Below, piece after piece: positions 9,734-9,796 of a stretch of 13,368 bases of DNA. Numbering within the stretch: the stretch's first letter is position 1; each line of letters opens with the position of its first letter. Both the position numbers and the translations under genes were made by a program. The notes beneath the pieces are model-generated. The model was not told where the DNA came from. It saw only the letters and a program-made list of their open reading frames with translations, and ran no database searches. Source of the stretch: Candidatus Thorarchaeota archaeon (GTDB lineage Archaea; Asgardarchaeota; Thorarchaeia; Thorarchaeales; Thorarchaeaceae); the NCBI GenBank assembly GCA_048882045.1, contig JBHLRZ010000012.1:74112-87479 (forward strand), written 5' to 3'.

Positions 9734-9796
9734 TTATTTCAGTGGTACATAGGCTGAAGACTTTGTGGCTCCGATTCCGGGGTTGCCATGTTTCGC
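9734..9796 (-). pseudogene. rps19: rps19 3'-end fragment, copy 2 (proximal)
   Basis: Encodes (A)[19 protein letters not shown]. The last 19 aa are identical to uS19. It matches 49/60 nt, with all 11 differences at third codon positions. Confidence 0.93.

Follow-up and report, generated by a model that had tools for sequence, protein, structure and literature searches.

An orphan rps19 gene end in a Thorarchaeota genome as a probable cassette boundary in a hypervariable island behind the uS19 gene

How does a stranded piece of a ribosomal protein gene come to differ from the intact gene beside it at many positions, all of them silent? The case comes from a Candidatus Thorarchaeota metagenome-assembled genome (MAG; GCA_048882045.1, 93% complete, called G000 here). 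The window, which is the whole stretch of 13,368 nucleotides analysed, lies on contig JBHLRZ010000012.1. Copy 2 of the uS19 gene end (window 9734-9793, minus strand, AAA CAT GGC ... AAA TAA) is identical to the end of the resident rps19 (10675-10734) at 49 of 60 positions, and all 11 differences are third-codon and silent. The silent share of single substitutions in this 60-nt stretch is 26%, which gives P ~4e-7 for 11 silent changes out of 11; none of 200,000 simulations of random substitution reached this outcome. Copy 3 (6944-7003) matches the resident gene end at 47/60 positions with three amino-acid changes, and the two fragments match each other at 53/60. The match counts agree exactly with those of an earlier sequence-only reading of this DNA. 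That reading was largely right, but had taken the fragment to be 60 nt long. A profile built with nhmmer from 49 intact rps19 gene ends aligns copy 2 over 9735-9816 (envelope 9734-9819), and the true unit measures 84 nt, the last 27 codons plus the stop codon. The 24 nt upstream encode LGSPMGRA, a version of 'SSPMxx', the form found at codons 110-117 in intact rps19 genes of other species. The genome holds only three copies of the uS19 end (the resident end, copy 2, and copy 3). They are direct repeats, and they bound two cassettes, one with a 253-aa membrane protein and one with a TPR-nitrilase protein (Table 1). As argued below, copy 2 is probably a repeated rps19-end unit that bounds cassettes in a hypervariable island directly behind the Thorarchaeota uS19 gene.

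Table 1. Features of the rps19 array in window coordinates.
Feature	Position	Strand	Evidence
Resident rps19 (uS19, 136 aa)	10675..11085	-	PF00203, E 3e-31; sole full copy in genome
Unit 1, resident's last 27 codons + stop	10675..10758	-	nhmmer E 2e-20
Terminator-like hairpin after resident stop	10638..10674	-	dG -14.9, z -4.4
Cassette 1 cargo, 253-aa membrane/surface protein	9821..10582	-	no Pfam match
Unit 2 (orphan gene end), 'SPM' allele class	9734..9817	-	profile and allele tree
Hairpin GGGGAAATTTCCCC after unit 2 stop	9711..9726	-	dG -12.2, z -2.4
Cassette 2 cargo, 837-aa TPR + nitrilase (CN_hydrolase), defence-like	7120..9633	+	Pfam
Unit 3, ancestral gene end, decaying, 3 amino-acid changes	6944..7027	-	L153 homology
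Native terminator hairpin after unit 3	6901..6938	-	dG -17.6, z -3.3
GNAT-OB gene, ancestral downstream neighbour of rps19	5997..6785	-	adjoins rps19 in L153

The resident uS19 matches PF00203 (Ribosomal_S19) over residues 35-119 with 107 bits against a cut-off of 27, and the allele class of unit 1 is common to the residents of G004, G014, and G009. The hairpin at 10638-10674 moves with cassette 1 and is 91% identical in G004; homologues of the 253-aa protein occupy the same position in G004, G009, and G017. When unit 2 is compared with G004, its variable part is 96% identical, whereas the 60-nt tail is only 83% identical. T-rich runs follow the hairpins behind residents and fragments alike. 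In PADLOC, the nitrilase domain of the cassette 2 protein was matched by CARF-nitrilase (1e-17) and RT-nitrilase (5e-14; DRT), and the protein is a candidate sensor-effector defence protein that forms a single-gene cassette. Upstream, the array is neighboured by a TPR protein, a small membrane protein, and EtfB. Searches for tRNA and Rfam families gave no match in the window. A module of radical-SAM, DUF2064, 254-aa, and GT2 genes at 2199-5551 is missing from L153, a relative in which the site is empty. A homologous block in G017 (L049:534-4107) sits between two uS19 fragments; the module in the window itself has no flanking uS19 fragment.

We compared 37 fragments with the gene of their own genome over 19 codons and obtained pS 0.67 and pN 0.042 (pN/pS 0.06); 14 of the 37 carry no amino-acid change at all. 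Because pS is near saturation and yet pN/pS is 0.06, the fragments derive from working gene ends. In G018, three fragments are protein-identical to the resident over 27 residues, with 9-11 silent differences each in the 57-nt tail. Fragments at matching positions of L157 and L155 show switches between serine codon families (TCN vs AGY), which mark separate origins in working genes. Copy 2 itself stands at pS ~0.73 from the resident, near saturation, with no amino-acid change, in agreement with the earlier claim that it is not a decaying local duplication. Both copy 2 and copy 3 are at pS ~0.6-0.73 from the resident, but only ~2.5 silent sites differ between them (pS ~0.17). Their remaining differences are three replaced codons, at which copy 2 retains the residues of intact genes. 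This combination places the two in one tail lineage, from which copy 3 left use first, while copy 2 was probably under coding constraint until recently. The proposal that copy 2 was orphaned recently is thus plausible, as only copy 3 has decayed. Distal fragments in general decay, by stops, frameshifts, and truncations. Between G000 and G009, copy 2 differs by 9 silent changes and 1 replacement, and the flanking cassettes are old (dS 0.8-1.2). This pattern needs either overwriting of the tail or some in-place selection on the fragment.

The order of events can be read from the empty-site relative. The rps19 of L153, 95% identical in protein, is followed by a terminator, GNAT-OB, and PPase. Homology with the window restarts at codon 110-111 of this intact gene and continues unbroken through unit 3, the hairpin, and GNAT-OB; the motif of the unit 3 hairpin is also present 3' of the intact L153 gene. 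The unbroken homology identifies unit 3 as the ancestral gene end, and with it the DNA between resident codon 110 and unit 3 as inserted. The comparison thus shows an ancestral arrangement of rps19, terminator, and GNAT-OB, and an insertion from codon 110 onward that stranded the old gene end (copy 3) beside GNAT-OB. In G002, a homologue of the TPR-nitrilase cassette lies directly 3' of rps19, which is the expected intermediate state. Elsewhere, the distal-most fragments keep the terminator of the intact genes of empty-site relatives (for example, L150_6512 vs G011).

The C-terminus of uS19 appears to be mosaic in these organisms. Thorarchaeota residents are hypervariable at codons 111-116 (NTGKP, VTNKP, SPMRQ, PTSRV, and others), whereas in the sampled Bathyarchaeia these codons are nearly fixed as ITNKP. 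The 'SPM' form looks like a Thorarchaeota innovation that is scattered over the 5' tree. Mapped on the tree built from codons 1-108, the 'PM' form calls for 7 changes, with strong branches forcing at least 5, and a single clade of 'PM' genes is rejected on the 5' data with AU p = 1.2e-6, for a group that was named after seeing the data. In the tree of the 81-nt ends, the resident falls with the residents of G014, G004, and G009, copy 3 with the intact genes of G011, L153, and L060, and copy 2 with the SPM class. The three window units represent three allele classes, each found as intact genes in other species. The outcome that would have refuted the earlier reading, congruent 5' and 3' trees with no intact allele closer to the fragments than the resident, was not seen. 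The membership of copy 2 in the SPM class of other species' intact genes supports the earlier proposal that it evolved as a functional tail elsewhere, and intact alleles match it better than the resident does (L015, 55/60 vs 49/60; L024, 63/84 vs 55/84).

The sequence-only reading had gone further and suggested that the resident rps19 may be a chimera whose 3' end is foreign. This is supported only in part. At the level of the clade it stands, given copy 3 as the ancestral end and the incongruence of codons 111-116 with the 5' tree. It does not hold for the latest cassette swap, since the resident end is common to four related species with a silent divergence equal to that of the gene body, and the most recent exchange (G000 vs G004) left it unreplaced. 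No donor can be named, since silent sites have reached saturation between species. Assigning one by nucleotide identity was rejected, as tails are ~75% (SD 7%) identical whatever their origin.

Among 87 genomes of the order, extra C-terminal fragments of uS19 occur in at least six genera (g1, g25, g16, g17, g22, and g26), and a single genome can have up to 8 uS19 matches. None were found in the other genera of the order, in Bathyarchaeia, Freyarchaeia, and Atabeyarchaeia, or in other outgroups. The genomes are fragmented MAGs of 74-99% completeness, with few strain-level pairs. Across them, the unit comprises the last 27 codons, the stop codon, and a further 0 to ~50 nt, and a terminator-like hairpin usually comes next. 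Its 5' edge is sharp at codons 109/110 and abuts dozens of unrelated cargos across genera. The fragments are always in direct orientation. The cargo between them spans 0.1-16 kb in either orientation; most cassettes hold 1-3 genes, and the largest interval is ~16 kb. Among the cargo are MFS transporters, a membrane family of glycoprotein-like proteins of 630-650 aa that recurs, and surface proteins with beta-helix, LRR, or propeller folds. Defence-like genes are also present: an Mrr nuclease (PDC-S02, 1e-140), a PLD nuclease (DrmC-like), HD-CE with HATPase, a deaminase, HerA-like ATPases, and the TPR-nitrilase of the window. An assembly artefact is an unlikely source of the arrays, given the 99.8% agreement of L157, L158, and L159, which were assembled independently.

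Several assemblies show further irregularities around rps19. Contigs L014, L019, L028, L062, L064, L090, and others end inside rps19 or within a few hundred bases past it, as is expected if repeats and strain variation break assemblies there. In G046, a uS19 fragment (L143:8126-8209; G046:C6) follows etfB, etfA, and a beta-propeller gene, and rps19 is on a different contig; this location implies a rearrangement or a second array site. On the single-contig Thorarchaeota chromosome of G073 (CP070658.1), rps19 occurs twice at full length (L141:9510-9920 and L142:2585-2995). The two genes are ~55 kb from each other, oppositely oriented, and 84% and 87% identical to the query. Where the window has its TPR gene, each is accompanied by an ORF of comparable length (186 or 211 aa). 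The double rps19 may have arisen by true duplication or by a large transfer, or the assembly may be chimeric.

Close pairs of arrays allowed the exchange boundaries to be mapped. Between G000 and G004, the 253-aa cassette has a dS of 0.18, compared with ~1.0 for the rps19 body, so that the cassette is 5 times younger. The young block starts just past the resident stop codon and ends near K117 in unit 2 (K117-G119), and the tails on either side of it have diverged as much as the gene body. No linkage of the resident tail to cassette 1 was seen, as the resident tails of G000 and G004 have diverged as much as the gene body. L157 and L158 (99.8% identical) part inside a unit, between K117 and A126, and the 3' part of the unit stays with the downstream cassette. 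L157 and L155 (96% identical) have the resident end in common and part ~20 nt past the stop codon. Units of L157 are identical for up to 50 bases past the stop codon. The boundaries seen thus fall at K117-G119, at K117-A126, at the stop codon, and ~20 nt after it, in a small set of events of which some may be secondary. The boundaries seem to vary in position, which would fit homologous recombination between units.

We searched for an enzyme that might act on the units. Among ~75 array ORFs, Pfam revealed no integrase or transposase, and ten Pfam-negative ORFs that were also searched in PHROGs gave no integrase. No integrase was found in or beside ~40 arrays. PF00589 and PF00239 had no match in G000, and PF00589 had none in G071, G077, and G080, which carry 5 to 8 units each. 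In G000 the search at E <= 0.01 returned no PF00589 match, so not even a XerA-type protein was detected. Recombinase-family matches in G015 and G073 are on other contigs or far from the arrays. At a MAG completeness of 74-99%, a recombinase could be unassembled or could reside on an unbinned helper element. A degenerate pattern of the tail found no match among the free elements of IMG/VR, and no circular intermediate was seen. Synonymous-site conservation marks no core site in the unit. An integron core site was rejected as a codon coincidence: GTTAAAC fits GTTRRRY only where Val is GTT and Lys is AAA, and other units read GTAAAGC or GTGAAGC. We also considered a recombination hairpin formed by the variable region (AGCTCACCGAT) with the I-G-A codons. 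RNAalifold was run on residents, fragments, and both together (106 units), and it found no conserved pairing beyond codon-forced pairs. Finally, the TGA of the 253-aa ORF (9821-9823) is 30 nt upstream of copy 2 and in frame with it in G000, but read-through into copy 2 was rejected; the frame relation is not kept in G009 or in G004, which has a 1-nt indel.

In our reading, the fragment is the end of a working gene, displaced or copied, within an array anchored at rps19; the way in which the cassettes move is inferred. Copy 2 would have served as a working gene end, or been copied from one, until recently. Cassettes would be gained, lost, and swapped through recombination between units, including excision of a circle with Campbell-type re-insertion at the gene, and double-crossover replacement with DNA of related species. 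The unit sequence would in this way pass repeatedly through the translated gene, where decayed versions would be purged, and such purging selection could explain why the divergence is silent only. An alternative, in which the resident end was duplicated locally in tandem and then decayed neutrally, fits the direct repeats on the same strand and their closeness to one another, but it is refuted by the silent nature of 11 of 11 differences (P as above), the three allele classes with cargo between the units, the existence of an empty-site relative, and the recurrence of the pattern across the family; we give it practically no chance. It is also improbable, though less starkly so, that the fragments are conserved in place, as a DNA recombination site that matches many hosts or as a translated peptide or RNA element. 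Under such conservation only host-invariant positions would be kept, which would mimic selection on the protein, and silent-only divergence would then be no proof of a past as a gene end. The G000/G009 comparison of copy 2 despite its old flanks, the intactness of copy 2 while copy 3 decays, and the in-frame TGA in G000 are all in its favour. It is countered by the indel that breaks this frame in G004, by cargo ORFs that end in various frames and orientations, by serine codon-family switches, which are unexpected under selection for DNA similarity, by a unit that lacks conserved pairing, and by the decay of distal fragments.

As to the enzymes behind the preferred exchange between units, we favour the host's general homologous recombination, at roughly even chances, over a recombinase that acts in trans, which is a possible second choice. 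The invariant sharp 5' edge at codons 109/110 runs counter to homologous recombination, as it is what a site-specific enzyme would give, and this process is also poorly served by units whose identity between species is ~75-88% and whose runs of identical bases are <=11 nt long. The rival reading, classic site-specific integration with accretion, would involve circular elements with an attP that contains a replacement for the rps19 end, and crossover would take place near codons 109-119. The integrase would be encoded elsewhere, on a helper virus or plasmid or by a host gene that escaped recognition, and the cassettes would be integrase-less passengers, like integron cassettes or cis-mobilisable elements. 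The constancy of the 5' edge across unrelated cassettes and genera, the stop codon and terminator that each unit brings with it, the two mapped boundaries compatible with crossover at K117-G119, and a bacterial precedent of tandem accretion at rpsI, rplL, and rpmG (PMC5357655) speak for it. Against it are the ~40 arrays without an integrase in or beside them, the absence of PF00589 and PF00239 from G000 and of PF00589 from three array-rich genomes, the unmarked core site, the boundaries at the stop codon or ~20 nt past it, and the empty search of IMG/VR. We consider this reading rather unlikely.

The arrays suggest a route for the uptake and shuffling of defence, surface, and transport genes in Asgard archaea; canonical integrases seem scarce in the genomes studied here. 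Codons 110-136 of uS19 lie within a universal phylogenetic marker, and in this family they depart from the species tree. The arrays may also account for the frequent breaks of Thorarchaeota contigs directly behind rps19. The silent-only signature offers a general test that separates displaced working gene ends from decaying duplicates.

Among known systems, streptococcal IMEs and ICEs insert at the 3' ends of rpsI, rplL, rpmG, and rpmE and accrete in tandem (PMC5357655). As there, the 3' end of an essential ribosomal protein gene is targeted without damage to the gene, each insert lies between direct repeats made of the gene end, successive inserts stack in tandem, and decayed elements persist. 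The direct repeats beside an intact 136-aa gene and the empty site of L153 are those expected of an integrase-borne integrative element; a tyrosine or serine integrase inside the element beside the att site was not found. The streptococcal elements measure 5-50 kb and each have their own tyrosine or serine integrase, whereas the inserts described here are mostly of 1-3 genes and without integrase. The Asgard host, the uS19 target, and the apparently variable exchange boundaries also set the arrays apart. Prochlorococcus tycheposons likewise form hypervariable islands that start from a conserved gene, with scars of successive insertions strewn through them as partial target copies, older arrivals displaced outward by newer ones, and adaptive or defensive cargo (bioRxiv 10.1101/2020.12.28.424599). 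Tycheposons target tRNA or tmRNA genes and carry tyrosine recombinases, whereas uS19 is a protein-coding target, which gives its scars a signature at the level of codons, and a recombinase was not seen. The window has neither a tRNA or Rfam match nor a recombinase.

Integrons, with IntI, attI, and arrays of attC cassettes, have also been reported in Archaea. The rps19 arrays resemble them as long arrays of small recombinase-less cassettes, each ending in a repeat, drawn from a pool common to relatives. They differ in that no intI lies beside the array and PF00589 is absent from the genome, and in that the repeat copies the end of a host gene and is not a folded attC; attC-type palindromes were not found, and the hairpins are terminator-like. 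Here the cassettes are also found in both orientations, often with their own regulatory space and sometimes with several genes. We tentatively suggest that the array may be an integron-like gene-capture platform, either without a dedicated integrase or with a new kind of recombinase, in which the last 27 codons of uS19 would serve as the portable site, and the uS19 end would be exchanged horizontally and be mosaic within the family.
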